A program made the position numbers and the translations under genes. Shown in pieces: positions 1-20,000 of a stretch of 20,000 nt of DNA. Source of the stretch: Chiloscyllium plagiosum (lineage: Eukaryota); assembly GCF_004010195.1 (NCBI RefSeq), contig NC_057718.1:45174007-45194006 (forward strand), given 5' to 3'. How positions within the stretch are numbered: the stretch's first letter is position 1; every line of letters begins with the position of its first letter. Below the pieces are notes generated by a model. The model was not told the DNA's origin. It saw nothing but the letters and a program-made list of their open reading frames with translations, and ran no database searches.

Positions 1-613
1 GTTTCCAATATAAACCGCCGATAAAAACACCTCAAGCCAGAAATTTAACAGAACAAAACGGCCACAGAATGCTCCGAGAACTAATCAATGACGCCCACCA
101 CAGACTCCGAAAATACAACCGGGAAATTGCGTGCCAAAAACCGTTATTCAAACAAGCAACAACTCAAGAATGGACAGATGCGGTAGAATGAGCCATAAAC
201 ACCAAACAACGACAAACACAGATAAAGAAAAATCGGGACCTGAAGAAAAAACTTGACAAGCTCACAAAAAAGGACAAAACCGATAACACAGGGGCATGGA
301 TAAAGAACGTATCAGACCGGACCCTATCAGACACAGAAGAAGCGGTATACTAGTCAAAGGATTAAATTTCAATTACCGAGACGCTGACAAGAAGGATTTC
401 CTAGCGGCATTAGAAACCACATTGAAGGACAACAATCTCATGGAAGAAACACAACAACCTATCAGACAGACAGTTACACCTACTCTGAGCCGAAAAAGGG
501 AAGGAAACAAACTGAACACACAAGAAAAGAAAGCCCTAGAAAACCTCAAAAAAGACAAAAACATTGTTATATTACCTGCAGACAAAGGTCGGCTCACAGT
601 CATCCTGAACAGA

Positions 614-891
614 GCTAAAAATCACACAACACCAGGTTATAGTCCAACAGGTTTAATTGGAAGCACACTAGCTTTCGGAGCGACGCTCCTTCATCAGGTG
701 ATTGTCGCTCCGAAAGCTAGTGTGCTTCCAATTAAACCTGTTGGACTATAACCTGGTGTTGTGTGATTTTTAACTTTGTACACCCCAGTCCAACACTGGT
801 ATCTCCAAACCAAATAAACCTGTTGGACTATAACCTGGTGTTAGGTGATTTTTAACTTTGAACACCCCAGTCCAACACCGGCATCTCCAAA
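614..891. mobile_element. Non-autonomous hammerhead-bearing PLE-derived insertion (family X), fold-back plus partial tandem, nested in the PLE ORF
   Basis: 69-bp inverted arms 616-684 / 704-772; direct repeat ~729-809 / ~812-890; flanks tcatcctgaacaga (600-613) and tcatccagaacaga (892-905). Removing it restores VILNR-RDYIEKANALL in the host ORF. Confidence 0.9.
666..700 (-). ncRNA. Minimal hammerhead ribozyme (family X, intact core)
   Basis: Reverse complement: cac CTGATGA a ggagc-gtc-gctcc GAAA gc TA gtg; stem I cac/gtg, palindromic AGCT stem III region. Confidence 0.85.
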
Positions 892-1549
892 TCATCCAGA
901 ACAGAAGGGACTACATCGAGAAAGCCAATGCACTACTCGTAGACACCAAGACCTACCAAAGGGTGGCGCTAGACTCAACCCCATAATTAGGAAACAAAAT
1001 TACATATCTCCTAAGAAAATTAGACAATTCCGGACAATTAAACAAGACGAAATTCCAGAAAATGAAACCCGACAGGACCAACACCCCACGATTCTACAGA
1101 CTACCCAAAATCCATAAACCAGGAACCCCTCCCCCAGACCTATAGTGTCACTATCCGGAACACCTACTTACAGACTGGCCAAAGAACTACACGCAAGACT
1201 GAAATACCTAGTAGAAGAGTCACAGCACTCCATCCACTCCACCCACGAATTCCTAAAAAACACCAAAATAGAGGAAGACGAAGCAATGATCTCATTCGAC
1301 GTAACAGCACTATTCACCTCCATCAACATCGACCTAGCAAAGGAAAAACTCGCCACACTTTTAGAACAGACCATCACACACAGACCAACCACCATCAATC
1401 ACATTACCAACGAAAACATCATGAAGCTAGTGGACCTGTGCCTCACCACCCACTTCACTTTCAACAACATAGTCTACAAACAAATCAACGGCACAGCCAT
1501 GGGATCTCCGCTATCAGGATTCATAGCAAAAGCGGTAATGCAAAGGTTA

Positions 1550-1619
1550 GAACAAACAGCCCTACCAATCATCAAACCAAAAATGAACAAACAGCCCTAC
1601 CAATCATCAAACCAAAAAT
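1550..1619 (+). repeat. Perfect 35-bp tandem duplication in PLE RT
   Basis: gaacaaacagccctaccaatcatcaaaccaaaaat at 1550-1584 and 1585-1619. Confidence 0.97.
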
Positions 1620-2595
1620 CTGGGTTCGCTACGTAGATGACACCTTTGCCATCACAAAACGAAACAAGATAGAAGAGACATTTAACATCATCAACAACAC
1701 CCTCACAGGCATAAAGTTCACCAAGGAGGAAGAAACTGACAACAAACTCGCATTTCTGGATGTCACCGTAGAAAGAAAGGACAAGGGAGAATTACAAACC
1801 TGCATATACAGAAAACTGACAAACACTGACCAAATACTCAACTACACCAGCAACCACCCCAACACACACAAACGAAGCTGTATCAGAACACTATTCCAAC
1901 GAGCCACCACACACTGCAGCACAGACGAACTTCGAAAAACAGAGAACCACCTATACGACGTATTCAAGAAGAACGGATACTCAAAAACACAGTGCGCAGA
2001 TTCCTCAAGAACAAACCACAACAAGCAGACAAAACACAGCCAGAAACCCTAACCACCTTACCATATATCAAAGAAGTTTCAGAAATGACAGCCAGACTAC
2101 TGAGACCCCTCAGAATCCGAGTAGCACACAAACCCACCAAGACTCTCAAACAAAAACTAACAAACTTAAAAAACCCAGTACAACCCAAGGACAAAACCAA
2201 CGTCATCTATAAAATTCCATGCAAGGAATGTCACAAACACTACATAGGACAAACAGGAAGAAAGTTAGCCACCAGGATACATGAACACCAGCTAGCCACA
2301 AAAAGACACAACCCCCTCTCCTTCGTAGCCCTACACACGGATGAAAAAACCCACCATTTCGACTGGGACAACACATCTATCCTGGGACAGGCTAAGCAAA
2401 GACATGCCAGAGAATTCCTAGAGGCCTGGCACTCCAACCACAACGCCATAAACAAGCATATAGATCTAGAGGTCATCTATCAACCCCTCAGAAAATGAAC
2501 ATGAAATGACATCACCACAAATCCCAGGAACCCCATCCAGGAGAAAGATATAAATAGAAAGCAGGAGACAACAGCTTCGCTTTACTTGGAGGTCG

Positions 2596-2635
2596 CCACT
2601 GATGACGTTACCTAGCCAGGTAATGAAACGTCTGG
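2596..2635 (+). ncRNA. Minimal type I hammerhead ribozyme at the PLE 3' end (intact core)
   Basis: cca CTGATGA c gttacct-agcc-aggtaat GAAA cg TC tgg: stem I cca/tgg, 7-bp stem II, palindromic ACGT in place of stem III, predicted cleavage after GUC at 2632. Confidence 0.88.
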
Positions 2636-3042
2636 ATATATCCTTTTTGCTTGAGGGAGAAAATAGCACAAACCAAAAAGCAATGGGAATTAATGGAGCG
2701 GTCTGAGAGTGAAGAGAAGCAGCACCCACCTGCATGTTTTGTTCTGCAATGAGGAAATAATGATGGCCACTTTGAGAAGATACATTGCTGAGAACCATTG
2801 TTTCCCCACTTCCTCTCAATTCTAGAAACTCGTCCTGCTCTGTCCACTCTCCAGTCATGCTCAATGCCAGATGAAGCTCCATTAGGTTATTCATGCCTCG
2901 AATTTTGTGTATTAGTGATTAAGTCAAGATATACTTCAGTTTTGACACACCACTCTAAAGTATTGAAGTTTTAAACAATTACGGAAAAGCAGCCAAAACT
3001 CAGACATTGCATTAGCAGCGAGAAGAATTCATCCTTTGTTAG

Positions 3043-3166
3043 AGACAAAAAAGTTGCAGATGCTGGAATCAAAGGTAGACATGCAGGAGGCTGGAAGAAC
3101 ACTGCAAGTCAGGCAGCATCAGGAGGTGGAGAAGTCAACATTTTGGGTGTAGCCCTTCTTCAGGAC
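3043..3166 (-). mobile_element. Short PLE-derived repeat (family Y-related) with decayed hammerhead
   Basis: Shares tgcagatgctgga...caggcagcatc with the family Y copies. Reverse complement of 3134-3166: gtc CTGAAGA a ggg-ctaca-ccc AAAA tg TT gac (stem I gtc/gac; GAAA lost). Confidence 0.75.
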
Positions 3167-4489
3167 CATCCAGAACAAAAGATCCAGCAACTAATTATCA
3201 ACTGGTTGCTGATCCCTTTGGATAACATTTGGGTGGGGTGGGTTTACAAGAGAAGATTTTGTAAATTCAATGGTATGAAGGGACATATGATGCTAAGGAA
3301 GCACACACACTGCAGTGTGGAACTAAAAAATGGCACTAATGTCAAAGCATCATTACACAATGATGGATGTTACAAATTTGCCTGTTTTATGTGCTCCCAG
3401 TTGTTTTTAGTTTGCCTGTACACACACCTTTGTAATTGCACGGTCCAGTGCACTTTCTATTCAAACTAAGCCTGTATGAAAACATGATCTTGACAATTGA
3501 GGAGATCCACAAAAATAGGTGCTAATGGAGCCCTTTTTGACCCTTGATCTCAGCGTAATGGCTAACTTTTACGGATCATTCTAGTCCTGCCGCATTCGGC
3601 TAGAAAGTCAGCAATGAGCACACACACCATACAGTTGGCTGTACTTTAGCAATTGATGATCAGAATCAGCATTAATTGCTATACCATAAGACTTCTGCTC
3701 TATCTTGAGGGTAAGTCTTGCTTCAGAGAGCTGGAAGGGTGTTAAACTCTGTAGTTCCAGCAGCATCACAAAACAACAGTGGCCACTGCTGGGACTACAG
3801 GCAGAAACAATGAAGAGGAGCTTGGATTGATAGGTCAATCCAGGCTCTCGCTAGGGCCAGGAAAGCAGTTGCTGGCAAAGAGGGTGGAGGGCCATGATGA
3901 GCGGTCAGATGGACCAAGCAAAAGAAGAAACATAATCTGGAGATGGAGCAGCATTGCCTCTGATGAGCATAGTGCTGGACCAATCCCATTGCAGGTAAAA
4001 TGGCGGTACAGGCAGGATGTGGACTATTAGTTGCCCATTTAAAAACCTCAAAAGCTCCAAGTATGTTCTAGCTGCCACTTCTCTCCCGTCCCTCACAAAA
4101 TATCAGACAACTTAGGAGTAGGTAGCAGGAAGGTCACGCACTGGATTTTACAGCATTCAAACCCACGAATTGATGCATGTAGCATCCAAACCATTCATAT
4201 ATTTAGGATGCGATACATGTAGAAACATAAATAAAGTGATAGAGATGTACAGCACAAATAAAGGCCTTTGGCTACCCTAACTTTGGCATCATTAATCAAG
4301 TCAGGTTGGTAGATGTGGAAAAGCCTGAAGAAATTCATCCCCATGAGTGAACTCCAAGCCACACATATCAGATACAATAGTATATGGAAATTGCATACAT
4401 ACTATCAACTGTTTTGTCTTCAAACTACAATGCAAAGTTTTACTTTAGCGGGTGTTGATTTCAAATAATGCTGAGAGCATTGTTATCAC

Positions 4490-4615
4490 CTGTTGGAAAT
4501 CCTTTTCCTTATCTTTTAACTTCTGTTCCATGTTGCGTCGTGTACTTTCAGCATTTTGTCTGTGACAACTCAATTCATCAGATACCTGCTTCAGCTTTTG
4601 TTCAACCATCAGACA
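4490..4615 (-). CDS. CENPF: CENPF internal coding exon (126 bp; probably human exon 8 equivalent); absent from the ORF track
   Basis: Hand translation: ctgattttgttAG|TGT CTG ATG GTT GAA CAA AAG...TTC CAA CAG|GTgata = CLMVEQKLKQVSDELSCHRQNAESTRRNMEQKLKDKEKDFQQ, matching recalled CENP-F YTALEQKLKKLTEDLSCQRQNAESARCSLEQKIKEKEKEFQE. Phase 0 at both ends. Confidence 0.94.
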
Positions 4616-4984
4616 CTAACAAAATCAGAAACAAATATGGATGTGACTTTTATATTCTGGAATGGATTCTAGTACCAATACAAGCAAGAGCAAATAATTT
4701 AAGAAATGTTTAGATTATGGAATATAATGCATAAAATGTGAAATTGAGGTTTCTTATTTGATTTTATGCTACTTATACCTACAAAGATAGACAAGTTGAT
4801 TTCGCAAAAGTTCTCACAGTTAGAGCTTATATCTTGATCAAATCAGGACATGGAATATTTTGCCTTTTGATTAAATAAATCCTCTGTTCTTAGCTGAAGA
4901 TGGTGGCTGGAATCTTTCTGAGTGGAGGTGGGCTAGCAAAAATAAATAACATGTAATGCAGGTGAAAAACACCATATCTCTCCC

Positions 4985-5456
4985 CCACCCTGAATTTGTA
5001 CTTGCAGAGTTACATTTTACTTTGCTCAAAAACTGCATGAATCCATGCAAGATTCTGTAAATCCATTTTTTAGATTAGAATCAGTCTGACCGTTGTGGCA
5101 CAGACAGTCTCACACAGGGCAGCTCCCACCTTCAATACATTATCTGGGCAAACATGACATCAATTGTTAAAGTTCACTTGAGAATGTAACTTTTTTAAAA
5201 AAAGGTTTTGCGATTTTCATATGAAAGAACTGAAACCAACATGGTCATTCTAAAAGATGAGAGACTTATCAAACAATCCAGGTCTTTTTTCAATATATAA
5301 CTTCAGTTACATCACACTGTAAACTTTTGCGATAAATTCTGTGTCTTACAGTCTTATTCTCCACAACCACCTGATGAAGGAGTAGCGCTCCGAAAGCCAG
5401 TGCTTCCAAATGAACCTGTTAGACTATAACCTAGTGTTGTGTGATTTTTAACTTTG
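4985..5456 (+). mobile_element. Family X PLE-type 3' non-coding fragment with hammerhead at 5368-5402
   Basis: 5368-5456 is homologous to the 614-891 insertion (cacctgatgaaggag...ctccgaaagc..gtgcttccaa..aacctgtt.gactataacct.gtgttgtgtgatttttaactttg). The 5' boundary is approximate. Confidence 0.7.
5368..5402 (+). ncRNA. Minimal hammerhead ribozyme with mutated cleavage-site U (probably inactive)
   Basis: cac CTGATGA a ggag-tagcg-ctcc GAAA gc CA gtg, versus gc TA gtg in the 666-700 copy. Confidence 0.75.
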
Positions 5457-5600
5457 AAGCAAATAAGCATGACAGATAAGAAGGAGAAAAGCTAACTTGG
5501 TAAGATGGGAATAAAATTGAAAAGATAAACTAAAAACAAATACAAAAAGATAAAACAATAAAGAGTAATGTTTAAAACTGATTAATAGTTCAGTAGCTAC

Positions 5601-5698
5601 CTGAAATAACAACAGAAAATGCTGAAAGCACTCAGCCAGTCAGACAGCATCTGTGCAGAGAGAAACAAAGATTTTTGTTTAGATTAATAACCTCTTAG
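5601..5698 (-). mobile_element. Left arm of an old fold-back PLE-derived repeat
   Basis: agaaaatgctgaaagcactcagccagtcagacagcatctgtgcagagagaaa is an inverted homolog of 7153-7204. Confidence 0.65.
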
Positions 5699-5700
5699 AG

Positions 5701-7125
5701 TACTGATTCTCAGCTCCAGGACATCTCTGCAGGACCTCCTTAGGAGTGACCTAAACCCAAGCATCCACAGCTTCTTCATCAATGACCTTCCCTCCATCAT
5801 AAGGTCAGAATGGAGATGTTCACTGATGATTACACAATGCTCAGCACCATTTGTGACTTCTCAGATACTGTTGCAGCCTATGTTCAAATGTAACAAGATC
5901 TGGACAATATGCAGGCTTGGGCAGACAAGTAGCAAGTAACATTTGCGCCACACAAATGCCACGCTATGACCATTATCAATAGGAGACAATCCAACCATCA
6001 CCTTCTGACATTCAATGATGTAACCATCACTAAAATCTATACTAACAATAGCCTGGGAATTAATCGTTGACCATAAACTCAAATGGATTCATCACATAAA
6101 CACAATGGCTACAAGACCAGACCAGAGGCTAGGAATACTGCGGCAAGTAACTAATCTTCTGATTCCCAAAAGCCTGTTCTTCACCCACAAGGCACAAGAC
6201 AGGAATGTGATGTAATACTCCCCACTTGCCTGGGTGAGTGTAGCTCCAACAACGCTCAAGAAGCTTGACACCATCCAGGACAAAGCAGCCCACTTGATTG
6301 GCACTACATCCATAAGCATCCACTTCGTCCACCACTAATGCTCAGTAACATCAGTGTGTATCATCTGCAAGATGCAGTGCAGAAATTCATCAAAGATCCT
6401 CAGACAGCACTTTCCAAACCGATGACCACGTTCATCTAGACGGGCAAGGGCAGTATATACATAGTCGAGCGTGTGTTACTGGAAAAGCACAGCAGGTCAG
6501 GCAGCATCCAAGGAGCAGGAGAATCGACGTTTCGGGCAGGAGCCCTTCCTCTGGAATGGGCTTGGGGAGTACAGTGAGAGAGAGATTCAGTGAGATCTTT
6601 GTTGAGATAGGAGGAGAACTTCTTAAAGGTAGGCATCCTTGGAAGAGGCTTTACGGTCAGGTTAAAATCAACTAGGAGAAAGGGAAGTCTGCAGATGCTG
6701 GATATCAGAGTCGAGAGTGTGTTGCTAGAAAAGCTTAGCACATCAGGCAGCATCCAAGGAGCAGGAGAAACGACGTTTTGGGCTGGAGTCCTTCATCAGG
6801 AATGATTCTTGATGCCTTTCCAGCAACACCTTCTCGACTCTGATCTCCAGCATCTGCAGACCTCACTTTCTCCCAGCATATACATAAGAACACCACTACC
6901 TTCAGGTTCCCCTCCTAACTTGTAAACATATCGCTGTTCCTTCACTGCCACTGGGTATAAATCCTGGCATTCTCTCCCTAACAGCATTGAGGTCTACCTA
7001 CAGCGCACGGAATGCACCAGTTCAAGTAGTCAGCCCATCACTACCTTCTCAAAGGCAACTAGGGACAGGCAATAAATGCTGGCCAGCCAGTGATGCCCAC
7101 ATCCCATAAATCACTACGAAAAAAG
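5701..7125 (+). mobile_element. CR1/L2-supergroup LINE (family A), 5'-truncated RT and 3' tail, interrupted at 6464-6873
   Basis: Degenerate RT (FINDLPSII..MFTDD at ~5776-5831); 3' tail ctagggacaggcaataaatgctggccagccagtgatgcccacatccc is shared with the copies at 13375 and 16965. Confidence 0.88.
6464..6873 (-). mobile_element. Family Y hammerhead/PLE-derived insertion: two tandem pLTR-like units plus an inverted tail
   Basis: Units ~6464-6557 and ~6680-6803, each with a decayed hammerhead; inverted tail 6805-6873; flanks cagtatatacata (6451-6463) and cagcatatacata (6874-6886). Confidence 0.85.
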
Positions 7126-7235
7126 ACAAAGATTCCATACCTGAATTAATTATTTCTCTCTTCACAGATGCTGGCTGACATGCTAAATATTTCCAGCATT
7201 TTCTAATATGATTTCAAATTTCAAACATCCACAGT
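7125..7235 (+). mobile_element. Right arm of the old fold-back PLE-derived repeat
   Basis: tttctctcttcacagatgctggctgacatgctaaatatttccagcattttct is the inverted homolog of 5614-5665. Confidence 0.65.
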
Positions 7236-7794
7236 ACTTTACTAGTTTTTAAAATCAGGAGAAATATATTCCACTAAAAATCAACAAACTAACCAGTAAC
7301 AATATTCTATGGATGAATAAAGACAAAATGAAACTAAGAAAAACACGTTGGGAAATATGATGTATTTATACATTTAATACTTTTTGCAATAAAAACTTTG
7401 ATTTTGCTGTTCTAACTCGAGAGTAATTGTCTCAAACAAATGAACTGCATACTGAAATGACATAGTTTTAAAGAATTCATCCGCTTGTTGCAGTCAAACA
7501 TCAAGTGGTAAAAGGGCAAAACTAGTCTTCCCCTTCTCACCTGGTTATAACAGGATACACTCAGGAATCACTAAAGTAAGCAAATCAGCTTTAGTAGGTT
7601 CATGAGGTAAAGCAACCAAGCACTGGGAAAAAAATTCGCGAAAAAAACTGAAAAGTCAGGGAAGTTAAACTTGAATTCAGGAAAACTTGGAATGCTATAT
7701 ACTGTTCAGGTAATCTTATTATAAAAATGCAAAAGCAGTAGAATCATTGTGTAAAAAGAAAAGTTTAAAAAGTTAATACCAGAATTGGTAAGAG

Positions 7795-8405
7795 TGAGTA
7801 CAGGAGTTGGAAGGTCATGTTGCGGCTGTACGGGACATTAGTTAGGCCAGTGTTGGAATATTGTGTGCAATTCTGGTCTCCTTCCTATTGGAAAGATATT
7901 GTGAAACTTGAAAGGGTTCAGAAAAGATTTACAAGGATGTTGCCAGGGTTGGAGGATTTGAGCTATAGGGAGAGATTGAATAGGCTGGGGCTGTTTTCCC
8001 TGGAGCGTCAGAGGCTGAGGGGTGACCTTATAAAGATTTATAAAATGATGAAGGGCATGGATAGGATAAATAGACAAATTATTTTCCCTAAGGTGAGCCA
8101 ACACATATCCAGAGGGCATAGGTTTAGGTTGAGAGGGGAAAGATAATAAAAGAGACCTAAGAGACCCCAACTCTTTCATACAGAGCGTGGTACGTATGTG
8201 GAATGAGCTGCCAGAGGAAGTGGTGGAGGCTAGTACAATTTCAACATTTAAAAAGCATCTGGATGGTTATATGAATAGGAAGGGTTTGGAGGGATATGGG
8301 CCAGGTGCTGCCAGTTGGGACTAGATTGGGTTGGGATTTCTGGATGGCATGGACGAGTTGGACCAAAGGGTCTGTTTCCATGTTGTAGGTCTTTATAAAT
8401 CTATA
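7795..8405 (+). mobile_element. CR1 LINE 3' fragment (HER1-like, family B)
   Basis: ORF 7817-8146 LYGTLVRPVLEYCVQFWSP..KDIVKLERVQKRFTRMLPGLEDLSYRERLNRLGLFSLE..RLRGDLI is the classic CR1 ORF2 C-terminus. The tail (gttggaccaaagggtctgtttcca) resembles the HE1 SINE tail. Confidence 0.93.
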
Positions 8406-8409
8406 AAAA

Positions 8410-8780
8410 CAGATGAGGAGTGACCTGACAGAGATCATTAATATAATAAAAAGGTTTGATCGGGTAGAAAGAGAAAATGTTTCTAATGCTGAAGAGGTAG
8501 AAAACTAGAGATCAGAAGTACAAGATAATCACTAATAAATACCACAGGGAATTAAGATCCTTCTTTACTCAGAATGGGAAGAATGTGGAATACAATACTA
8601 CAAAGAGCATTTTAGGGAAATATAATTGATTCATTGGAGGGATAGCTAGATAATCTTGTAACAAGAATGAAACTTCCTGATATAGTTAGGAGGAGGAGGA
8701 TGGGACAAGATTCATGCGAGCATGAATGCTGCCATGGGCCAGCTGGATCAAATGCTTGTTCAGTGTAGTACATTCAATGC
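8410..8780 (+). mobile_element. Older, highly decayed CR1 3' fragment (may continue from ~7690-7790)
   Basis: gatgaggagtgacctgacagagatc...ggtttgatcgggtaga...ctttactcaga...gaatgtggaa follows the CR1 RGDL...F.RV...WN pattern. Confidence 0.55.
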
Positions 8781-8967
8781 AACATTCTCATAAGATAAAC
8801 ATAAAAATGGAAAATTATTCAATGTCAAACAAGTAGTGTACATGAAAGAATAATGTATAGTTATTGATTTTAAAAACTGAATAAAATTAAACGAATTAGC
8901 TACATTATAATCATTCTAATTAAAATGACAAATTAGCTTAAAAGTGAATTAATGGATCTTACTGTAC

Positions 8968-9170
8968 CTTTGTACTGGCTTGTTCACACTGTGCAGTTAC
9001 CTTGGTCAATTCATCTCTGGACTTACTGAGTTTTTGTTCTTTCTCTGAAAGATCTACTTTAGCTTTATCAAACTGGAATTGGATTTCATGAAGTTTATTC
9101 AGATGATTTTTGATTTCTTTCTCCTGAGTTTTAAGTCGAAATTCCAGATCAGAAACTTTAGTTTGCAGGT
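8968..9170 (-). CDS. CENPF: CENPF internal coding exon (203 bp; probably human exon 7 equivalent), coiled coil
   Basis: ttttgttttgaAG|AC CTG CAA...GCC AGT ACA AAG|GTacag. G from the previous exon + AC gives Asp in frame. Peptide DLQTKVSDLEFRLKTQEKEIKNHLNKLHEIQFQFDKAKVDLSEKEQKLSKSRDELTKVTAQCEQASTK closely matches recalled CENP-F ELRNKINELELRLQGHEKEMKGQVNKFQELQLQLEKAKVELIEKEKVLNKCRDELVRTTAQYDQASTK. Confidence 0.95.
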
Positions 9171-9654
9171 CTTCAAAACAAAAAGTGCACACCTTTCATC
9201 AACTCTACAAATTAAGTATAACTGCAGTCCAACAATTAATCATTTATTCTGCTTGAAACATTTCAACACTTAAAACTATTTTATTCAAGAGCAATATTAC
9301 AGCTAGTACTAAAACACTTCAGAAAACACAGGGGCATCAGTAGGGTGTACAATAATAGAATGCAGTATATCTCAGGCTATTAGATCCAAAATTTATATTC
9401 AATTTATTATTCTAGCTTGTTGTTCTGATGTGTAAGTCATTATTTTGTAATTGTTCTACAAATGACAAATTTCTGTCAGTCAATACTTTTCACCTTTCAA
9501 ACAAGTATAGGTAATTCAATAAAATGAACCATTGTTGAATTTACTAATTTGACGTCATGTTTTATATGGAATTAGAAATTTAAATAAAAATATTGACAAC
9601 ATTGCGATTTTTAAACTGCTGGCTCATCAGTTATGCTTTCATCCTTATTTTAAT

Positions 9655-10460
9655 AAGTGGCCAACTGTTTGGTAAATGGAAGTATAATGTGGGAAAATGT
9701 AAAATCGTCAATTTTGTATAAAAAAAGCATATTATCAAAATGATGACAGATTGCAGAGCTCTGAGATACAGATGACTCTGGGTGTCCTACTGCTTACACC
9801 ACAGAAAGCTAAAGTGGAAGAAAGCAAATAATTAGGGAAGCTAATGGAATGTTATTTATCATGAGTGGAATTGAATAGAAAAGTAGGGAGGGTACGCTTC
9901 AGTTATGGAGCACTGATGAGACAACATCTGAGCATTGTGTGCAGTATTGATCACCTTATTTAAGATAGGATGTAAGTATGTTGGAAGCAGTTCAGTGGAA
10001 CCTTACTCAACTAATACATATTTTTGTCTTGTGAGGAAAGGTTTGGACAGGCTAGGCTGTATCCTCTGGAGTTTATAAGAGGAAGAGATGACTTAATTGA
10101 AGTAAGAGATCCTGAAGGATTTTGACAGGATAGATGTTGAGAGGATGTGACAGAATCTAGAACTATGGATTGTTGTTTAAAAATTAGGGGTTGTGCATGT
10201 AAAGAGATGAGGCAAAATATTTTCTCACAAAGGCCCATGTGTTTTTGGAACTTACTCTCTGAAAAGGTAATGAAACATTGACGTTTCAGTATTTTAAAGG
10301 TATAAGTAGATAAGCTTATTGCAAGTAAGGGGGCGGAATGGAATCAGATGTTGGTCAATATTCCGACTTATGGTTAAAATCAAATCAGCCATGATCTAAT
10401 TAAATAATGGAGCAGGTTTGAGGGCTGAATGACTTACTCCTGCTCCTTATTCATAACATA
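9655..10460 (+). mobile_element. Decayed CR1 LINE 3' fragment
   Basis: Remnants of W.M.YNVGKC, LE.CVQ.W, RLGLY.LE, RR.DLIE motifs; tail ggagcaggtttgagggctgaatgacttactcctgctcct. Confidence 0.8.
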
Positions 10461-11634
10461 CATTGATAAGACCACATAGTTAAATTTAAAACTGGCCAAT
10501 AATATGACAGCTTCGTGACTAATTTAAGGACTTAGCCAGTGAAATTTTCTCATTGTTATTGAAATCCGTTTTTCTCTGTAAAAATATGGACCATCCACTC
10601 TTGCACTGATAGCAAAACACTAACAGTTCGAAATGACTGTCAAATTGTGGAACAGAAAATTTAAATCATCATCCAGAAGCTGAAAATCATTAACTAAATC
10701 AAGTAAGGCACAATGTTAATATTAATTTCAAAAAGAATTAGGATTTCTGAACAAATACGTTGTGGCTGGCATAAAGATGAAGAAAGGTTGAAAAACATGT
10801 CAAGATGAATGACAGGAGTATATAGCAGTCCCAACACAAGATGATGTGGTCACTATGGATCATCATGAGGCCCTAGTGTATTTGAGTCAAGAGAAGACAA
10901 TGCTACATAAATAACACAAACATAAAAATGTTGACTTTGCATTACTATGTAGTACACCAGGAAACGAAAAAAGTACAAACGGTAACGTACTATAACCTGT
11001 AAAGAAAACATAAGAATTTCTTATATGCTCAATTAGTTGATTTACTCTAATTCAGGGCAATTAATTTAATGATTTTTAAAAATGCCATGGGATAATCAGA
11101 AAGATATAGATTTATAATCGGTGTAAAGATTAAATTGCAGAAAATATATATTATTTATCAAATAAAGGATTCTTAGGATTGGATGAACTCCTCTTCAATC
11201 TTTCGGAGTCTTCATTTAAACCCTGTTATAAATGTCTTCTACAAAATGAATTTGAGTAATCCACATCTTAGTGGATGCAAAGATATAGTACAAATTGATA
11301 CTAGTTTGGATGTAGTGAATACTTAACTGTGTGAAAGGTAAAAAGATTTACTCTTATGCAGTACAGAGATCAGTTCTAAAAGTTGAATTCAGGGTGCATT
11401 ACTTAGAATAAAGAATGTTAACTATAAGTAAGAAATTGAAGAACACTGCATCAAAGATTAGAATGATCAAAGTGAGATGGACAAATTGAGAAGTATATTT
11501 AGTGAAATGGGTATAATATTTGTTTGCACACTACTTGTGATCCTCATGCTTTATAGAATTATAAAATTGTTTATGAAAGCAATTTCTCTCAAAATGGTTA
11601 GTTATGAGTAATTACTTTTGGATCACTACAATAC

Positions 11635-11926
11635 CTTGATTTTGTAATTTCAGTTGGTCCTCCTGCTTAGAGGTGTCCACACTGTTATTAATCCAGCTTG
11701 TTGAGTGTGTAGTCTTTTGCAGTGATTTGGGACAATGCGTCAAGGGAGTTTCTTCTTGGTCCCATTGAAAATTCATGGCAATACCCTTCTTCATTGGGGT
11801 TTCTAGTGAATGAGAGGTTTGGTGACTTGGAGTTTGTTCTTGTTGCCATGGAAATACAAAAGAGGATCGCTGATGTGCCATATTCCGATGGCCAGTGGTG
11901 CTTTGAGGCTGCGTCTGGTTAGACAA
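11635..11926 (-). CDS. CENPF: CENPF internal coding exon (292 bp; probably equivalent to human exon 6)
   Basis: Minus strand ttcccatttttcAG|TTG TCT AAC CAG...CAA AAT CAA G|GTatt. Peptide LSNQTQPQSTTGHRNMAHQRSSFVFPWQQEQTPSH...EDQLKLQNQ resembles recalled human CENP-F (SQTLPQATMNHRDIARHQASSSVFSWQQEKTPSH...LLDQLKAQNQ). Ends in phase 1, compatible with the next exon. Confidence 0.92.
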
Positions 11927-12169
11927 CTGAAAAATGGGAAAAAAAATTCAATTCAGAAAGGAGTTCTCTAACAAGTGCTCTACTTTTAAATATGTTTGTT
12001 AATCTGAAACTGAGAACACTCCTATTGCTGTATGGATTTTAATTTATAGTCAGCATAGATATAAACCAGATTACAAAAGCAGGAAAGTGTATTCATTCAT
12101 TGTACAATCCAGGTCATCAGGAAAGTGTCTTGCTACATTAGAGATGAGAACTATCAAGAACTACCACAA

Positions 12170-12550
12170 TATTACTCAGCATTTATATGAAATTTCTAAA
12201 ATGGACTATATTGCAAAGTGCTTCAAAAAGGTATAACAAAAAAAATTGCCACCAAACCAAAGAAAATTAAGGGGGAGGAGCTAAAGCATTGTTAAAGAGC
12301 TGAATTTTAACAAGGATCCTAAAGGAGCATAGGGATGTGGAAAGGCTGAGAGCTCAGAGACAGAATTGCAGAGCATGGAGCCTAAGTATCTGAACACAGA
12401 GCTGCCAGTGGACGGAAAGGACAGGAGGTTTTCAAACTAGGTTTAGTAGAATGAACTGTAGAATCAATTGTATGATTGGCGTATCGTACAGAAATACAAT
12501 AGTTTAGCAATGAGGGCATTGAAAGATGAGAACAAACAAATATCCAATAT
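12170..12550 (-). mobile_element. Probable decayed L2-type LINE 3' remnant
   Basis: gcatttatat...aaagtgcttca...taaaggag...gaattgcagagcatggagcctaag pattern resembles recalled antisense L2 3' ends; strongly diverged. Confidence 0.45.
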
Positions 12551-13374
12551 AAATGTCCTATCTTGGTATTTTTTGCCGGATCCTGCAGGGTACTCACCTT
12601 ACTAATGTCTTTGTTGTGTCAGTCATTTGAACCATTTGACTTGGTCACTAGACCAATAATCATTACCACATTCTGCCAACACCTTGCCCCTGAGTGAAGC
12701 CTCCCCTCCAAACAAGGCTTTTGAGAAACTGCTTGCCAAATCACTACAGTGTTGGTGTGGCTTTTAACCACCAACTTATACTTTAGTCTCACTTCTCCTA
12801 CTCCATTGGCTCTATCCCCTGTTGAACAAGTCACCATTCCTCCCTTTAAAACCATGGTTTCTTCCCTCACTTTAAGCCCCAACAAATGTATCTCACTAAA
12901 TTATACTCCAAATTCCACCTTCCCATCCTCAAAAACTCATTACTGCTCCTCTGAATTCACTGCCTCCACCATCCCCACAGTCCATACAAAAGGTCTCTTT
13001 CATACAAGTCCTTCTACCCATTCTTACTGTCAGCCTCTTAAAATTACCCAGTGTCCATTTCCATCATCTCAAATTAATGTAGCATCTCCAAATGCTTCAT
13101 TGTCACTTTTGGCAGCCACAACCCTAACTCCATTACCGGGCCAACCTAAAATTACTGTCAGTGTTTCCAGTCAGCTGTGGATGCATGCAACTGCACACTC
13201 AGAGGGTCCTATGTAAGATGCTGTGGATGCAGTGTATACAAAATTGAAAAGTACCATGCATTAATACTAAGAAACCAAGTACAATGAAAACATTTAGAGG
13301 GAACATTGCTTTCAGCTGTATTTTTCATCTCAACTTTCTAGCTTTTGGCTCTCCAATTTCCCCAACACGCAATT

Positions 13375-15544
13375 GTTTTTTCTATTCATTCATGGGACAT
13401 GGGCATTTCTGGTTAGCCAGCATCCCTAATTGCCCTTGAGAAGGTGGTGCTGACCTGCCTTCTTGAACCACTGCAGTCTACATGCTGTAGGTTGAGCTAC
13501 AATGTCCTTACGGAGGGAATTCCGGGATTTTTACCTAGCAACAGTGAAAAATGGAGATATATTTCCAAGTCAGAATGTTCAGAGGCTTGGAGGGGAACTT
13601 CCAGGTGGTGGTATTCTCATTTATATGCAACGCTTGTCCTACTAAATGAAATCGCTTGTGGGATTGGAAAGTGCTGTCTAAGAAACATTGGTAAAGTTCT
13701 ACAGTCCATCTTGTAGATAGCACACACCGCTGTTAGCGAGCATCAGAAATTTATGCTTGTGGATGTGATGCCAATCATCAGGCTGTTTTGACCAGCATGG
13801 TGTCAAGCTATTTCAATGTTGTTGGAGCTGCACTCATCCAGGAAAGTGGGGAGTATAACTTCACATTTCTGGTAAATGATATACAGGCTTTGGAGAGACA
13901 GGATGCGAGTTATTCACTGCAGTATTACTCACTGTCCCGACCTGCTTTTGCAGCTGCTGTATTTATGTGGCAAGTCTAGTCGAGTTTCTAGTCAACAGTA
14001 ACAACAAAGTTGTTGATATTGGGGAGTCAGTGACGGTAACGCAACTGCATGTCAAGATGCAGTGATTGGATTATCTTTTATTGGAGATGGTCATTAGCAT
14101 TCATGTCACACAAAAGCACTGGTCAGCCCAAGCCTGGATATTGTTCAGATATTGTTGCTTTTGAACATGGACTGCTACAGTATCTGAAGAGTAACAAATG
14201 GTGCTGAAATTTATGCAATCAGCAATCATCGCATTTTCTGACTTTATAATGGTGGGAAGTCGCTGATGAAGCAGCTGAAAATGGTTTAGACCTAGGACAC
14301 TACCCCAAGGAATTCCTGCAAAGATGTCGTGGACCTGGGATGACTGACTTCCAACAATCACAATCATCTTCCCATGTGCCAGGTACGACTCAAACTAGTA
14401 CAGAGTTTCAGCAGATCAGAGCTGAAAATGTGTTGCTGGAAAAGCGCAGCAGGTCAGGCAGCATCCAGGGAACAGGAGAATCGACGTTTCGGGCATAAGC
14501 CCTTCTTCATGCCCGAAACGTCGATTCTCCTGTTCCCTGGATGCTGCCTGACCTGCTGCGCTTTTCCAGCAACACATTTTCAGCCCTAGTACAGAGTTTG
14601 CCTTCTGATAACCATCGATTCCAGTTTTGCTCGGTCTACTTGGATGCCATTCTGGGTCAAATGTGGGCTTGACATCAAGGATGGTTAATCTCATCTCACT
14701 TCTGGAATTCAGCTCTTTTAGACCATGTTTGAACCAAGGCTGTAATGAGGTCAGAAGCTGAGCGTCAAAAAACAGGTTATTGCTGAGTAGGTGTTGCTTG
14801 ATGGCACTGCTGATGACATCATTTTACGACGATTGAGAGTACACTAACCAGACAATGGTTGGCCAGGTTGATTATGCCCGGCTTTTTGCGTACAGCACAC
14901 ACCTAGGCAATTTTCCACAGTGTTAGGTAGATGCCAGTGTTGTATCTGTACTGGAAGAGCTTGGCTATGAGAGCAGTTCTGGAGCAGAAGTCTCCAGTAC
15001 TATTGCCCAAATCTCATCAGGGCCTCTGCTGTCTGGAATAATGTTGAGGACACCCAAGACAAATCCTTCCCAACTGTATACAACTGTGCCACCATCTCTG
15101 CTGGGTCTGTCCCGCCTGTGGGACAGAACATATCCAGGGGTAGTGGTGACTGGGACATTGTCTGTAAGGTATGATCCCATGCCAATTTAGTAAGGGGAAC
15201 TTTGCAGAGCAGACAGAGCTATTTCTGTCATTGTCTTTTCCAGTGGTCCTTCCGGGTTCAATCCGTCGTTGAGATTTTATAAAGATTGATACAACTGAGT
15301 GGTTTGCTAGGCAACTTCAGAGGGAAGTTGAGAGTCAACCGTATTCTAGTAATTCTGGAATGACATGTAATCCAGTCTAAGTGAGGGTGGCAGATTTCCT
15401 TGCCGGAAGGGAATTTTTCATGCTTTTCATGATCACCAATATATTAATTCCAACCTTTTCTTTACCGAATTCAAACCCAGATCCCCAGAACTTTAGCGGA
15501 GTTTCTGGATTAATAGTTTAGCAATAATAGGGCTATCGCCTCCG
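13375..15544 (-). mobile_element. Family A LINE retaining both ends, internally deleted, with SINE-like 5' region
   Basis: 3' tail at 13375-13445; RT remnants (AGIPWGSVLG, MIAD, IQAWAD in ORF 14101-14367); endonuclease fragment SYLTDNVP..PGYVLSHRRDRPSRDGGTVVYS (ORF 14965-15180) abutting GPDEIWAIVLETSAPEL; tRNA-like/Deu-like region 15288-15544. Confidence 0.82.
14409..14585. mobile_element. Family Y perfect fold-back insertion with 14-bp TSD
   Basis: 76-bp perfect inverted arms 14421-14496 / 14509-14584, 12-nt loop aagcccttcttc; exact flanking repeat ctagtacagagttt at 14395-14408 and 14586-14599. Confidence 0.96.
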
Positions 15545-16616
15545 TATACAATAATCAACATGTAGCCACTCTCTGGTGAGAGAAGCTAGCTAGGTGGCTT
15601 CAGAACACATGTGACAGGTGACCATCCCCCCACATTGAAAGATATTACCACAAGGTGCAAAGAACAATAGGAAAACTTGAGCTTTAACACCAAAGGAATC
15701 GGAGAGTTCAAAAGGTATATGAGAGAGAAATTGAAGACAGGTGTGAAAGGCTTTCTATAATAGGGTAGCAATGGCAGTTTGTAAAGGAACGAGGAGTGGT
15801 AGATAGGACACAGACTGCTTGAAATGACTGTTAACATGGAGATTATGAAGGAACATTGGATTGTCAGCAGCTAAATGGAAACAGGGTCAAAGGATCAATA
15901 GGTTTGATGCAACAAACTAGGTGAGGAAGACAGAATGAAAACTAGAGACAAGGTTTCAGGCTGCAAGCAGACAAGGGAGAGGAAAGCAGCAGATGGGCTT
16001 GAAGACAGTTTCAGACCTGGTCTAAGAAGTTCTTGATCTCCTAAACTTGTTAGGGATAAGGTAAGACTTATAACAGTTGATAGATGAAACATGAATTTAT
16101 TTTTAAAATTTGGAATGCCAGTGATTTTATAGTAACATATCAAACCTTGCCTTACTTTATTTTCCAGACAATTATATCTGTAATGATCAAACTCCATGCT
16201 TTTACAATTCCAGATGAAGATGCTACCTGTGAGAAGTGCTTGATTGGAGCTCATTAATAGAATTCATGACTATGGTGAAATTTGTGGCACAGGCAGGTGC
16301 AAAGTCTGGCAAGGTCTACCTTTGTTATTGGGAGCATCGTTTATGGGTAGGGCTTCATGGGGGGTGAACAGCAACAATTTTTCATTCCTGTCTAGCACAA
16401 AAGTAAACTGGGAAAGGTAGCCAAACTATGGTTTACCAGAGAAATTAGAGATAGTGTTAGATCCAATGAAGAAATATATAAATGGTCCAGAGAAAACAAA
16501 AATTTGAGGAATGGGAGCATGAATTTACAATAGGGAAGTTATACTTGACATCGTCAAAGAATTCCAGTAGATTTAGCTATTAGAATTGATGGAAGCGGAG
16601 AAAGTGGAGATCATTT

Positions 16617-16922
16617 GGGCGGCCCGGTGGCACAGTGGTTAGCACTGCTGCCTCACAGCGCCAGAGACCCGGGTTCAATTCCCGCCTCGGGCGACTGTCT
16701 GTGTGGAGTTTGCACGTTCTCCCAGTGTCTGCGTGGGTTTCCTCCGGGTGCTCCGGTTTCCTCCCACAATCCAAAGATGTGCAGGTAAGGTGAATTGGCC
16801 ATGCTAAATTGCCCGTAGTGTTAGGTAAGGGGTAAATGTAGGGGTATGGGTGGGTTGCGCTTCGGCGGGTCGGTGTGGACTTGTTGGGCCGAAGGGCCTG
16901 TTTCCACACTGTAATGTAAATG
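16617..16922 (+). mobile_element. HE1-type tRNA-derived V-SINE, young full-length copy
   Basis: Pol III A box tggcacagtgg (16628-16638), B box ggttcaattcc (16672-16682), V-domain gtgtggagtttgcacgttctcc..gtgtctgcgtgggtttcctccgggtgctccggtttcctcccaca, CR1-derived tail gggccgaagggcctgtttccacactgtaa; many CpGs retained. Confidence 0.93.
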
Positions 16923-16964
16923 TTTATTTGCAAATTTTACTCTTACACAAGACTGTGCAAAATT

Positions 16965-19405
16965 GTTTTTTTATTTATTCATTTTATGGGATGTGGGTAT
17001 CGCTGGCTGGCCAGCATTTATTGCCCACGCTTAGTTGCCCTTGAAAAGATGGTGGCGAGCTGCCTTCTTGAACCGCTGCAGTCCACCTACTGCAGGTTGA
17101 TCCACAATGCCATCATGGAGGGAATTCCAGGATTTTGAACCCAGTGACAGTGCAGGAATGGCAATGTATTCCCAAGTCAGATGGTGAGTGGCTTGGAGGG
17201 GAACTTGCAGATGATGGTGGAGTTCTCATACATCTACTGCTTTTGTCCATCTACATGGAAATGTTATGTGCTTAGAAGGTGGTATCTGAGGTTCCTTGGC
17301 AAATTTCTGCAGTGCATCTTGCAGATGGTATTCACTGGTGTTGTTGAGAGTTGGTGGTGCAGGGAATAGATGCGGTGCTAATCAAGCAGGCTGTTTTGTG
17401 CTGGATGGTGTCAAGCTTCTTGAGCATTGTCATGGCTCTCACTCCTGCCTTGTGCCTTATAGATGACAAGCTTTAGGGAGTCAGGAGGTGTGTTACTCGC
17501 CACAGTGTTCCTAATCTCTGACTTGCTCTTGTCGCCAATGCATTTATGTGGCGAGTCCAGTTTTGTTTCTCATCAATGATAACGCCCAGGGTGTTAAAGT
17601 AGGGGATTCAGAGATGGTAACACTATTGAATGTCAAAGGGCTCTTAGATCGTCTCTTGCTGGTGATGGTCAAACTCTGGCATTTGTGGTGTGGCACACAT
17701 GTTACTTGCCACTTGTCAGCCCAAGCCTGGATATTGTCCAGATCTTGTTGCATTTGGATACAGACTGCTTCAGTGTCTGAGGAGATGCGAATGGTGCTGA
17801 ACATTGTTCACTGATGATTGCACAACCCCACTTCTGAACCTTATAATAATGGGAAGGCCATTAATAAAAAGTAGCTGAAGAACTCCTGCAAAGATGTCCT
17901 GGAGCTGAAATGACTGACCTCCACCACCACAACCATCTTCCCATGTACCAGAAATGTTTTCCCCCGATATCTGTTCATTCCAGTTTTACTAGGGCTCAGT
18001 CATGCCACATTCAGTCGAATGTATCCTTGATGTCAAGGACTGTTATTTTCACTCCACCTTTGAAATATAGCTCTTTTGTCCATGTTTGAAAGAAAGCAGT
18101 TTTGAAGTCAGGAGCAGAGTAGCCCTAGCAGACCCTGGGGGTCACTGAGCACATTATTGCTGAGAAGGTGCTGTTCAATAGCACTGTTGATGGCACCTTC
18201 TTTCACTTTACTGGTGATCGACAGTAGACTGGTGGGGCTGTAATTGGCTGGTTTGTCCTGCTTTCTATGTACAGGACATACTAGGGAAAAATTCCACATT
18301 GTCAGGTAAATACCAGTTTTTTAACTGTACTGCAACAGCTTGGCTAGGGGAGCTGCAAGTTCTGGAGCACAAATCTTCAGCAGTAATGCCAGAATGTTGT
18401 CGGGGCCCGTAGCCTTTGCAGTATCCAGTACCTCCAAACATTTCTTGATATCACAGGGAGTGAACTGAATTGGCTGAAGACTGGTATCTGTAATGCTGAG
18501 GATCAATACAGGAGGCCAAGATGGATCATCTACTCAGCATTTTTTGGCTGTAGATTGCTACGAGATCTACACCCTTAACTTTTGCACTGACATACTGGGC
18601 TCTTCCATCATTGAGAACAGGTATATTTGTGGAGCCTCTTCCTTCAATGAGTTGTTTGATCATCCACTACCATTCACAACCAGATGTGGTACCACTGCAG
18701 AATTTAAATCTTATCTGCTGGTTGTGGGATCTCTTAGCTCTGTCCCTCACTTGCTGCTTATGCTGTTTGGCATGGAAGTGGTCCTATTTAGTGGCTTCAT
18801 CAGGTTGACACTTCATCTTCAGGTATATCTGGTGCTGCTCCTGGCATGCTCTCCTGCACTCGCCATTGATCCAGGGTTAATCCCCTCACTTGATGGTAAT
18901 AGTCGAGCGGGGGGATATACCAGGCCATGAGGTTACAGATTATATTGAAGTACAGTTCCACTGCTGTTGTTTGCCCAGAGAGCCTCATGGATGCCCCATC
19001 TTGAGTTGCTAAATCTGTTCAAAGTCTGTCCCATTTATTGTGCCTTCATTGTGCCACACAACACAATGAAGGCAGGACTTCATCTCCACAAGGAATGTGT
19101 GATACAGTCATAGACAGATGCATCTGCGCCTGGCAGATTCTTGACCTCATCCTTACCAATGCTTTTCCCTCTTGTTGGGTCCCTCACCACCTGCTGCAGA
19201 CCCAGTCGAGTAAGTATGTCATTTAGGATTCGACCAGGTCAAATGGTAGCACTGCTGGTAAGACACTCTTAGCGGTGGACAATAAAATCCCCCACCTGGA
19301 GTACATCTTGTGCCTTTGCCATCCTCAGTGCTTCTAAGTGTTGTTCAACATGGACTAGTGATTCATCAGTTGAGGGAGGAGGGTACGTGGTAATCAGCAG
19401 GTGGT
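16965..19405 (-). mobile_element. Family A LINE, ~2.4 kb, endonuclease to 3' tail, decayed
   Basis: Tail ...gccagcatttattgccc..ttagttgcccttga at ~17005-17045; minus-strand ORF pieces MQQDLDNIQAWADKWQV, PVHRKQDKPANYSPTSLLS, LDTAKATGPDNI..LLKICAPELAAPLAKL; EN LITTY.PP near 19375-19400. Confidence 0.92.
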
Positions 19406-19419
19406 ATCTTTACTCATCA

Positions 19420-19582
19420 TTAGAGTGGTCCTGGAAAAGCACAGCAGGTCAGGTAGCATCAGAGGAGCAGGAAAATCGACGTTTCAGGCAAAAGCCCTTC
19501 ATCAGCCCGTTTGCCTGAAACATCAATTTTCCTGCTCCTCAGATGCTATCAGACCAGCTGTGCTTTTCCAGCACCACTCTAA
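19420..19582. mobile_element. Family Y fold-back insertion, moderately diverged
   Basis: 73-bp imperfect inverted arms 19420-19492 / 19510-19582. Reverse complement of 19476-19505 is CTGATGA a gggc-tttt-gcct GAAA cg TC ga (hammerhead core intact, stem I 5' strand apparently lost). Confidence 0.88.
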
Positions 19583-19589
19583 CCTCATG

Positions 19590-20000
19590 TAAAGAGTAAA
19601 AGAGGGGGAGGTGTGGCATTGCTTGTCAAAGATAGTATTACAGCTGTGGAAAGGATGATGGATGAAGACTCGCCATCTGAGGTTAGGAATAGGAAAGGTG
19701 AGCTCACCCTGTTAGGAGTCTTTTACAGGCCTCCTAATAGTCCTAGAATCGTAGAAGAAAGGATTGCGAGGATGATTCAAGAGAAGAGTGAAAGTAATAG
19801 GGTGGTTGTTATGGGGGACTTTAACTTTCCTGATATTGATTGGGAAAGCTATAGCTCAAGTTCGTTAGATAGGTCAGTATTTGTCCAATGAGTGCAGGAG
19901 GGTTTCCTGACACAATACGTAGATAGGCCGACAAGAGGTGAGGCCATACTGGATTTGGTTCTGGGTAACAAACCAGGCCAGGTGTTAGAATTAGAAGTAG
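19590..20000 (+). mobile_element. CR1 (HER1-like) LINE ORF2 endonuclease fragment, 5'-truncated, runs off window
   Basis: GGGVALLVK...LLGVFYRPPNS...VVMGDFNFPDIDW...(stop)...FLTQYVDRPTRGEAILDLVLGN: APE endonuclease motifs. Confidence 0.93.

Follow-up and report, generated by a model that had tools for sequence, protein, structure and literature searches.

Hammerhead-bearing hairpins in the genome of Chiloscyllium plagiosum as probable short head-to-head insertions of two Neptune-type Penelope-like elements

In the shark Chiloscyllium plagiosum, a window of 20,000 nucleotides (the whole stretch of DNA analysed here: assembly GCF_004010195.1, contig NC_057718.1, positions 45,174,007 to 45,194,006) holds four short hairpin-shaped insertions of two families, X and Y, which carry an intact or altered minimal hammerhead ribozyme. 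These hairpins are a known by-product of the insertion of Penelope-like elements (PLEs), and X and Y are new family members, perhaps already named in Dfam or Repbase, and not a new class. The hairpins are probably short insertions of two protein-coding Neptune-type PLEs, each made anew at landing and consisting of two head-to-head complementary DNAs (cDNAs) of the capped 5' leader. Head-to-head inverted terminal repeats (pLTRs), junction palindromes, a one-sided tail and target-site duplications (TSDs) of 8-10 bp are described for rotifer PLEs in PMC3846280, and the same layout is given as a general PLE feature in PMC8557442, PMC8969392 and PMC2377424. The origin of the inverted repeats and tails is called unresolved there (PMC8557442, PMC3846280). 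Metazoan PLE hammerheads are mostly single motifs from truncated PLEs, and Schistosoma has opposite-strand pairs 100-700 bp apart (PMC4209133). A first-pass annotation of the window had presented the architecture as new; it has already been described (PMC3846280, PMC8557442, PMC4209133).

By sequence comparison, the X and Y arms are the termini of two protein-coding PLEs. In one X copy (L118) the reverse transcriptase (RT), a CxxxxCxxC finger and the GIY-YIG domain are all contiguous with the X arm, and in the Y copies L295, L297 and L299 the same three parts are contiguous with the Y arm (RVT_1, E 3.8e-9), this coding sequence being decayed and read across frames in both families. The source of the arms therefore has the organisation of endonuclease-bearing (EN+) PLEs, in which the RT is followed by a C-terminal GIY-YIG with a CCHH motif, and the Penelope-like origin proposed in the first-pass annotation is borne out. 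Both families carry a CX2-5CxxC finger between RT and endonuclease, by which Neptune is defined here following PMC8557442; the same finger also marks Nematis (PMC8557442), and the Neptune label is to be read with this in mind. The X and Y termini have no significant DNA similarity (best E 0.16, with a core match of 11 nt), but their RTs are homologous (32% over 183 amino acids, E 3e-24). In Y, the conserved sequence behind the tail opens a reading frame in L051, the start of which presumably resembles a PLE N-terminus in one motif; open reading frame (ORF)-like sequence lies behind the tail in four other loci too, and in X no ORF start was found behind the hammerhead-bearing repeat. From this arrangement, hammerhead and tail may also stand at the 5' end of the Y coding RNA, like in the anole element (PMC11167929).

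The ribozyme itself conforms to the minimal type I hammerhead in its core, in the additional base that follows A9, in helix II and in a palindromic remnant of helix III, with loop II variable and its stem kept across 140 Y and 64 X cores. No Rfam hammerhead family was matched (20 matches, all below the gathering score, including sub-threshold microRNA ones), and energy folding of monomer and dimer did not reproduce the active hammerhead fold, a result without bearing on activity. Among 67 Y hairpins compiled from random, pattern-found and 13 hand-picked loci, a full-length core region is present on one arm only in 40, on both arms in 15 and on none in 12. At L064, L088, L056 and L076 there are other minimal hammerhead families, in which helix II is long and which are related to a core at window position 2599.

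The high copy number that had been claimed was confirmed in the 3.56-Gb assembly, in which a 40-mer of the Y arm has 25,060 exact matches and exact head-to-head junctions with gaps of 35-64 nt number 7,865 for Y and 3,285 for X. A systematic sample was drawn at even spacing from 15 large contigs, leaving out the two stretches next to the window; its 138 stretches of 10 kb comprise 1.32 Mb once N are discounted. In it, a head-to-head pair is present in 35/201 Y-type clusters, a count which takes in distant relatives, and in 25/63 X clusters, or in 35/182 Y and 24/58 X when counted with a single reference. Same-strand pairs are found in 5/201 Y and 7/63 X clusters and tail-to-tail arrangements in one Y-type and one X cluster; extrapolation gives about 9e4 Y-type and 7e4 X hairpins. 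Arm length overall ranges from 30 to >1,000 bp: inverted arms measure about 70-840 bp among 30 long X loci, and among 14 long Y loci the 5' part is inverted or hairpin-like in eight, usually with a tail on just one of the two arms, and Y arms can exceed 1 kb. Inverted insertions thus form a continuous series of lengths, of which the hairpins are the shortest members. Some long X copies have 5' inversions without overlap that resemble L1 twin priming (L113, L123, L130, L131), alongside duplicated inversions.

The outer ends of the hairpins are unequal in a regular way. Positions in the arms are numbered relative to the hammerhead cut, the last base of the triplet being 0, which places C3 at -27 in Y and -28 in X. 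A tail of 35 nt is present on one arm and absent from the other, so that the tailed outer end lies at +94..+102 in Y and about +90 in X and the untailed one at +55..+65 in Y and +50..+61 in X; in every clean hairpin of the sample (34 Y and 19 X) one outer end extends further than the other, and solo copies in the 138 stretches show the same two 3' modes. In vitro, an anole PLE protein cuts and extends both target strands, uses unprocessed RNA and starts at two sites that bracket the tail (PMC11167929), and by analogy the two outer-end modes match these two RT start sites, one for each target strand. The Y hairpins are flanked by TSDs (score >=9 in 59/67, compared to 12/139 random window pairs) of 9-21 bp, mostly 12-17 bp with a mode of 14-15, lengths which include 1-3 nt common to the element. 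An inverted 5' copy head to head, a one-sided tail and a variable TSD, that is, the structure of a PLE insertion unit, are found together. Mobilisation by a DNA transposase, as in miniature inverted-repeat transposable elements (MITEs), would account for the short inverted-repeat shape and the high copy number, but fixed-length TSDs and equal fixed termini are missing: termini differ between ends and between copies, and the arms run into RT and GIY-YIG genes. The MITE reading, which the first-pass annotation had also turned down, is refuted by the variable TSDs, which are of the retroposon type, and by the unequal ends, and can practically be dismissed. Arrays of tandem units with a complete hammerhead in each, as in retrozymes, were not encountered either.

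The inner ends point to a common boundary, A(-31) in Y and A(-36) in X, beyond which few of them extend. The Y boundary falls within an initiator-like YYATTC motif, and a TTAT box conserved across diverged subfamilies stands 30-32 nt upstream of A(-31); in X the distance from TATAAA to A(-36) is 32 nt, and the listed junctions stop at -36/-37 when read by eye. Exact Y arms that end at A(-31) with a non-template next base number 4,296, compared to 556 ending between +5 and -3, around the ribozyme cut, although about one third of the latter ends pass the filter and the ratio is rough, the patterns being different. By such exact-pattern counts there is no major pile of arm ends at the cut; ends at +1 make up about 16-31 of 100 listed rows by hand count, many of them explicable by microhomology. 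At A(-31), an untemplated G follows in 56/100 listed rows and in 22/37 solos, against 15/100 and 7/31 at the control position T(-29) and an expectation of about 26-29% (Fisher p 0.003), and in full-length L1 insertions an extra G is regarded as a cap signature (PMC11702581). The 5' ends of 73 young Y solos fall in -43..-26 in 29 cases and in -175..-44 in 8; a further 25 lie downstream and 11 extend past the reference. The hairpin centre is therefore likely the RNA 5' end just upstream of the ribozyme, and not the cut site.

The two arms also differ in how far they reach. Among 33 classifiable Y hairpins, restricted to loci that were not hand-picked, the untailed arm extends further 5' than the tailed arm in 16, 9 are compatible with fold-back and 8 are near symmetric (32, 14 and 13 in all 67, with 8 unclassed); for X the corresponding numbers are 14, 10 and 5 of 29 classed hairpins, with 2 unclassed. 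Because the untailed arm extends beyond the 5' end of the tailed arm, neither arm is a simple copy of the other in these 16 of 33 Y hairpins. A single cDNA started at the tail end could alternatively fold back near the hammerhead, copy itself and join the other target end, the asymmetry of the centre arising by later deletion. Such self-priming was proposed for palindromic junctions (PMC3846280) and would suit the centres, which show 1-3 nt of microhomology (36/67 Y hairpins) or short templated fillers, the nine compatible cases among the 33 unbiased ones, and the agreement of both arms at subfamily sites in 53/67 Y hairpins (shuffled mean 17, maximum 28). It does not explain why the untailed arm holds 5' sequence absent from the tailed one in 16/33, nor would chance annealing predict that the untailed outer end falls at +55..+65, exactly where solos end, and two-strand priming has been shown in vitro (PMC11167929); we regard this alternative as unlikely.

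The hairpins bear the marks of separate formation at each insertion. Among 50 listed Y junctions, five types recur (about 8, 6, 4, 3 and 3 times), all on microhomologies of 1-3 nt. In the loci examined, hairpins with one and the same junction type carry the tail now on one side, now on the other, and come from several subfamilies, their two arms matching and each hairpin having its own TSD (13 loci hand-picked for this comparison). The first-pass annotation had placed the hairpins in a non-autonomous class that is transcribed and re-inserted as units by PLE proteins. The small number of frequent junction types would be expected of such a class, and the internal promoter of Drosophila Penelope (PMC2377424) might allow stubs to be transcribed. 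A fixed junction, a fixed tail side and shared arm-specific changes were, however, not found together, with one exception pair discussed below; microhomologies underlie the frequent junctions, which turn up in different subfamilies and with either placement of the tail; the three occurrences of one X hairpin lie in flanks that are 97-98% identical over 1.4 kb; and neither the TATA-like box upstream nor the ORF-start region, which the anole protein needs for binding (PMC11167929), is part of the stubs. As the arms moreover continue into coding sequence and form a continuum of lengths, a separate class is very improbable, and this part of the earlier interpretation is not supported.

On the preferred reading, a head-to-head pair of cDNAs made at landing, the promoter in the terminal repeat would start a capped RNA 4-8 nt upstream of the hammerhead, and the PLE protein, for which a dimer is predicted in the anole element, would make a staggered cut in the target. 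Each target 3' end would then prime reverse transcription at one of the two internal sites bracketing the tail, both cDNAs would pass the uncut hammerhead to or towards the cap, and their 3' ends would anneal by microhomology and be repaired. Failure of priming on one strand would leave a solo stub, priming at the downstream repeat of a tandem transcript would give a long arm, and tandems would follow from a template jump from the RNA 5' end into the ORF start. The ribozyme would be a passenger, and any read-through RNA is predicted to trap it within the hairpin. A more tentative extension, which we hold to be somewhat less probable than not, is a two-primer, two-template integration of a kind unknown from long interspersed nuclear elements (LINEs), in which two capped, uncut RNAs would be bound by one protein dimer, perhaps paired by way of the hammerhead palindromes, and each target strand would be extended on its own RNA, from its own start site as far as the cap, before the two cDNAs are linked. 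Hints of it are the non-nested arms, the cap G and the fact that the arms of 5/50 listed X junctions (C1:5010615, 14526728, 16182088, 22901396 and 26861148) differ at a 2-nt subfamily indel, one of them at a second site too; copying from two RNAs is a possible source of these differences, and so is slippage.

Several observations weigh against the preferred reading. The start site is deduced from DNA only. RNA reads, which stem from many copies, have loose ends at -31/-30, +58 and +97..+99 on both strands that reflect genomic boundaries and not the ends of molecules, and the one RNA run with reads, from a library not built for that purpose, has no pile of molecule starts or ends. The cap-G counts are hand counts that cover a single young Y subfamily and the first 100 rows from one contig, and local numbers were too few for the same test in X. 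Non-nested arms could be explained by fold-back followed by deletion of the centre, 8/67 Y hairpins are unclassable by tail, and the set of 67 is the mixed one described above, hand-picked loci included. No full-length X or Y copy in one piece occurs among the 30 X and 14 Y long loci, and the ORF start in L051 has no Pfam match, so that its label depends on an N-terminal motif. In the window, the insertion at 19420-19582 consists of two untailed arms without TSD. The X hairpins L251:1430-1665 and L253:1464-1680 have a complex junction in common, and also two point changes at different sites, as a re-inserted hairpin would; their junction has only two exact copies in the genome, 260 kb apart, with different flanks and tails on opposite sides, and our guess is gene conversion. 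Finally, the Y 5' boundary coincides with the end of hammerhead helix I, and the stubs might be extreme 5' truncations of the element 3' end, at which the RT stalls past a folded or dimerised hammerhead, making the boundary a structural one and not the cap. This is improbable in our judgement, since the X ceiling of -36/-37 lies about 5 nt past helix I and follows the TATA spacing, the untemplated G is specific to -31, and tandem copies jump from that very boundary into the ORF start.

All four inverted pairs claimed for the window are present (Table 1), with identities of 96% (606-684/704-782), 99% (14418-14496/14509-14587), 85% (19407-19492/19510-19595) and 87% (6672-6734/6814-6876). Two of the insertions are more complex than fold-backs: the X element at 614-892 carries an additional duplication of 82 bp, and 6464-6873 is a composite of an untailed antisense arm, about 113 nt of ORF start, a tailed antisense arm, filler and a 60-bp tailed sense piece. 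The three TSDs of 13-14 bp that had been announced were measured at 13 bp (one mismatch), 13 bp (one mismatch) and 14 bp (exact), and insert-free paralogous host repeats cross the sites of 614-892, 6464-6873 and 14409-14585 in 1, 16 and 11 local matches, respectively; 19420-19582 has no TSD and none of 18 local matches crosses its site. A motif scan found an intact hammerhead core in only two of the four, 614-892 and 19420-19582 (at 697 and 19505, both on the minus strand), since C3 is absent from 14409-14585 and both cores of 6464-6873 are mutated. Predicted folds of three elements are long hairpins that would absorb the core on both strands. The supposed older fifth insertion, 5601-5698 / 7125-7245, retains 79% identity over 67 bp and is plausible as the decayed hairpin of an older relative split by a CR1-like piece, with no core and no clear TSD left. 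At the left flank of 14409, contigs from four sequencing runs contained the junction with the insert in one run and an empty allele in none.

Table 1. Coordinates of hairpin insertions, related copies and host sequence in the window
Feature	Position	Strand	Remark
Left TSD of X hairpin, 13 bp	601..613	+	Partner 893-905, 1 mismatch; inside Poseidon-type PLE ORF
X arm without tail, spanning ~+57 to A(-36), where the RNA probably begins	614..705	-	
Family X minimal type I hammerhead, core intact; AGCU palindrome replaces helix III	669..697	-	Features as in PMC4209133
X arm with tail, -13 to ~+91; 2-nt centre microhomology; start downstream of other arm's inner end	704..809	+	
82-bp tandem duplication of X right end including tail	810..892	+	
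Right TSD of X hairpin	893..905	+	
Left TSD of composite Y insertion, in CR1-like piece	6451..6463	+	Partner 6874-6886
Y arm without tail, reaching likely RNA 5' end; core mutated	6464..6558	-	
Start of Y ORF region (sequence behind tail), via putative template jump	6559..6671	-	Same sequence behind tail in L032, L051, L224, L256
Second Y arm, tailed, reaching likely RNA 5' end; core mutated	6672..6805	-	
Short tailed sense Y piece, after 8-nt filler	6814..6873	+	
Right TSD of composite Y insertion	6874..6886	+	
Left TSD of young Y hairpin, 14 bp exact, in CR1-like piece	14395..14408	+	
Y arm with partial tail, +74 to -26; C3 absent	14409..14509	-	
Y arm without tail, ~-13 to +63	14510..14585	+	
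Right TSD of young Y hairpin	14586..14599	+	
Y-type arm without tail, core at 19478-19505	19420..19505	-	
Y-type arm, likewise untailed, no TSD; between two oppositely oriented CR1-like pieces	19512..19582	+	
Left arm of older related hairpin, no core left	5601..5698	-	
Probable right arm of same older hairpin, tail-like end, 1.5 kb off	7125..7245	+	Assignment presumptive
Solo 5'-truncated X copy without tail; TATA-like box ~5331; core 5371-5399, cut triplet mutated	4991..5456	+	
Tailed arm of further Y-related family plus short sense remnant	3064..3190	-	Absent from the first-pass list
Host: decayed Poseidon-type PLE (RT, GIY-YIG), own hammerhead at 2599-2632	1..2640	+	

The surroundings of these insertions are themselves rich in retroelements. 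CR1-like pieces lie at about 5700-7124, 7769-8400, 13380-15040, 16960-19419 and 19583-20000, and the flanks of 19420-19582 are two CR1-like endonuclease pieces facing apart, which may reflect a rearrangement or a target deletion. We take 16617-16920 to be a tRNA-like short interspersed nuclear element (SINE), presumably akin to shark HE1. The host Poseidon-type PLE (window 1-2650 together with L031:9021-10000) is near full length and has the same head-to-head layout at a scale of 3.5 kb, with a TSD-like repeat of 13-14 bp and a tailed inverted arm of 699+ bp (96.7% identical), followed by an untailed sense copy; an exact 35-bp tandem duplication at 1550-1619 shifts the frame of its RT. Its sense copy begins at the base directly after the hammerhead cut triplet, which is a single hint of a template with a ribozyme-made 5' end. 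Elsewhere, Y stubs were seen in or beside X elements, several of them at the X tail (L021:1595, L204, L283, L047:2213-2330, L136), and it is possible that Y stubs prefer other PLE ends as targets.

The claim of a class adds little; the value of the hairpins lies in their in vivo support for two-strand priming up to the cap. The sole biochemistry of PLE insertion is in vitro, and young stubs by the tens of thousands map both priming sites and the RNA 5' end in vivo at base level, and they speak for an RNA template in which the hammerhead has mostly stayed uncut. If the two-template reaction is true, it would account at once for tandems, inverted pLTRs and the tail at one end only, and the hairpins of this genome, roughly 1e5 per family, would be the test set. 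Such hairpins also risk being annotated as MITEs or microRNA precursors, and many perfect hairpins inside introns could form double-stranded RNA.

A partial literature search yielded no paper on shark hammerhead hairpins and none that maps a cap G or two-strand priming onto genomic PLE stubs, and the available part of PMC6155905 contains nothing on sharks. Compared to known systems, the X and Y hairpins come closest to the insertion units of EN+ PLEs, with which they have in common a 5'-truncated copy with an adjacent inverted copy, a junction palindrome, a tail of 30-40 bp at one end, a variable TSD and partial tandems (PMC3846280, PMC8557442, PMC2377424); here, the shortest form, two arms of 70-130 bp without ORF, is very abundant, its ends can be mapped at base level, and the TSD mode is 14-15 whereas it is 8-10 in rotifers (PMC3846280). 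The anole Poseidon element PAc likewise has both strands cut and extended, two internal starts bracketing the tail, an unprocessed template and a predicted dimer, but it belongs to the Poseidon clade and was studied in vitro, while X and Y carry a Neptune-type finger (PMC11167929), and in the sections available its main text derives neither inverted arms nor a cap boundary from the in vitro reaction. With the minimal hammerheads of metazoan PLEs the cores share the extra base after A9, the G10.1-C11.1 pair, the palindromic 15.2-16.2 and a short helix I (PMC4209133), and differ by a helix II of 4 bp and by the full-length core region standing on one arm only in most hairpins. Animal non-LTR (non-long-terminal-repeat) retrozymes are also PLE-derived, non-coding and hammerhead-bearing; they form head-to-tail arrays with a core per unit, whereas the X and Y hairpins are head-to-head and made per insertion (bioRxiv 10.64898/2026.07.22.740005), and the retrozyme-like two-unit tandem within 6464-6873 has both cores mutated. 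L1 twin priming, finally, has in common the priming of RT by the second target end, discrete TSDs of 12-18 bp and a cap-derived G at full-length 5' ends, but the inverted part of L1 comes from upstream, nearly non-overlapping RNA (PMC11702581), whereas here both arms copy one and the same stretch.

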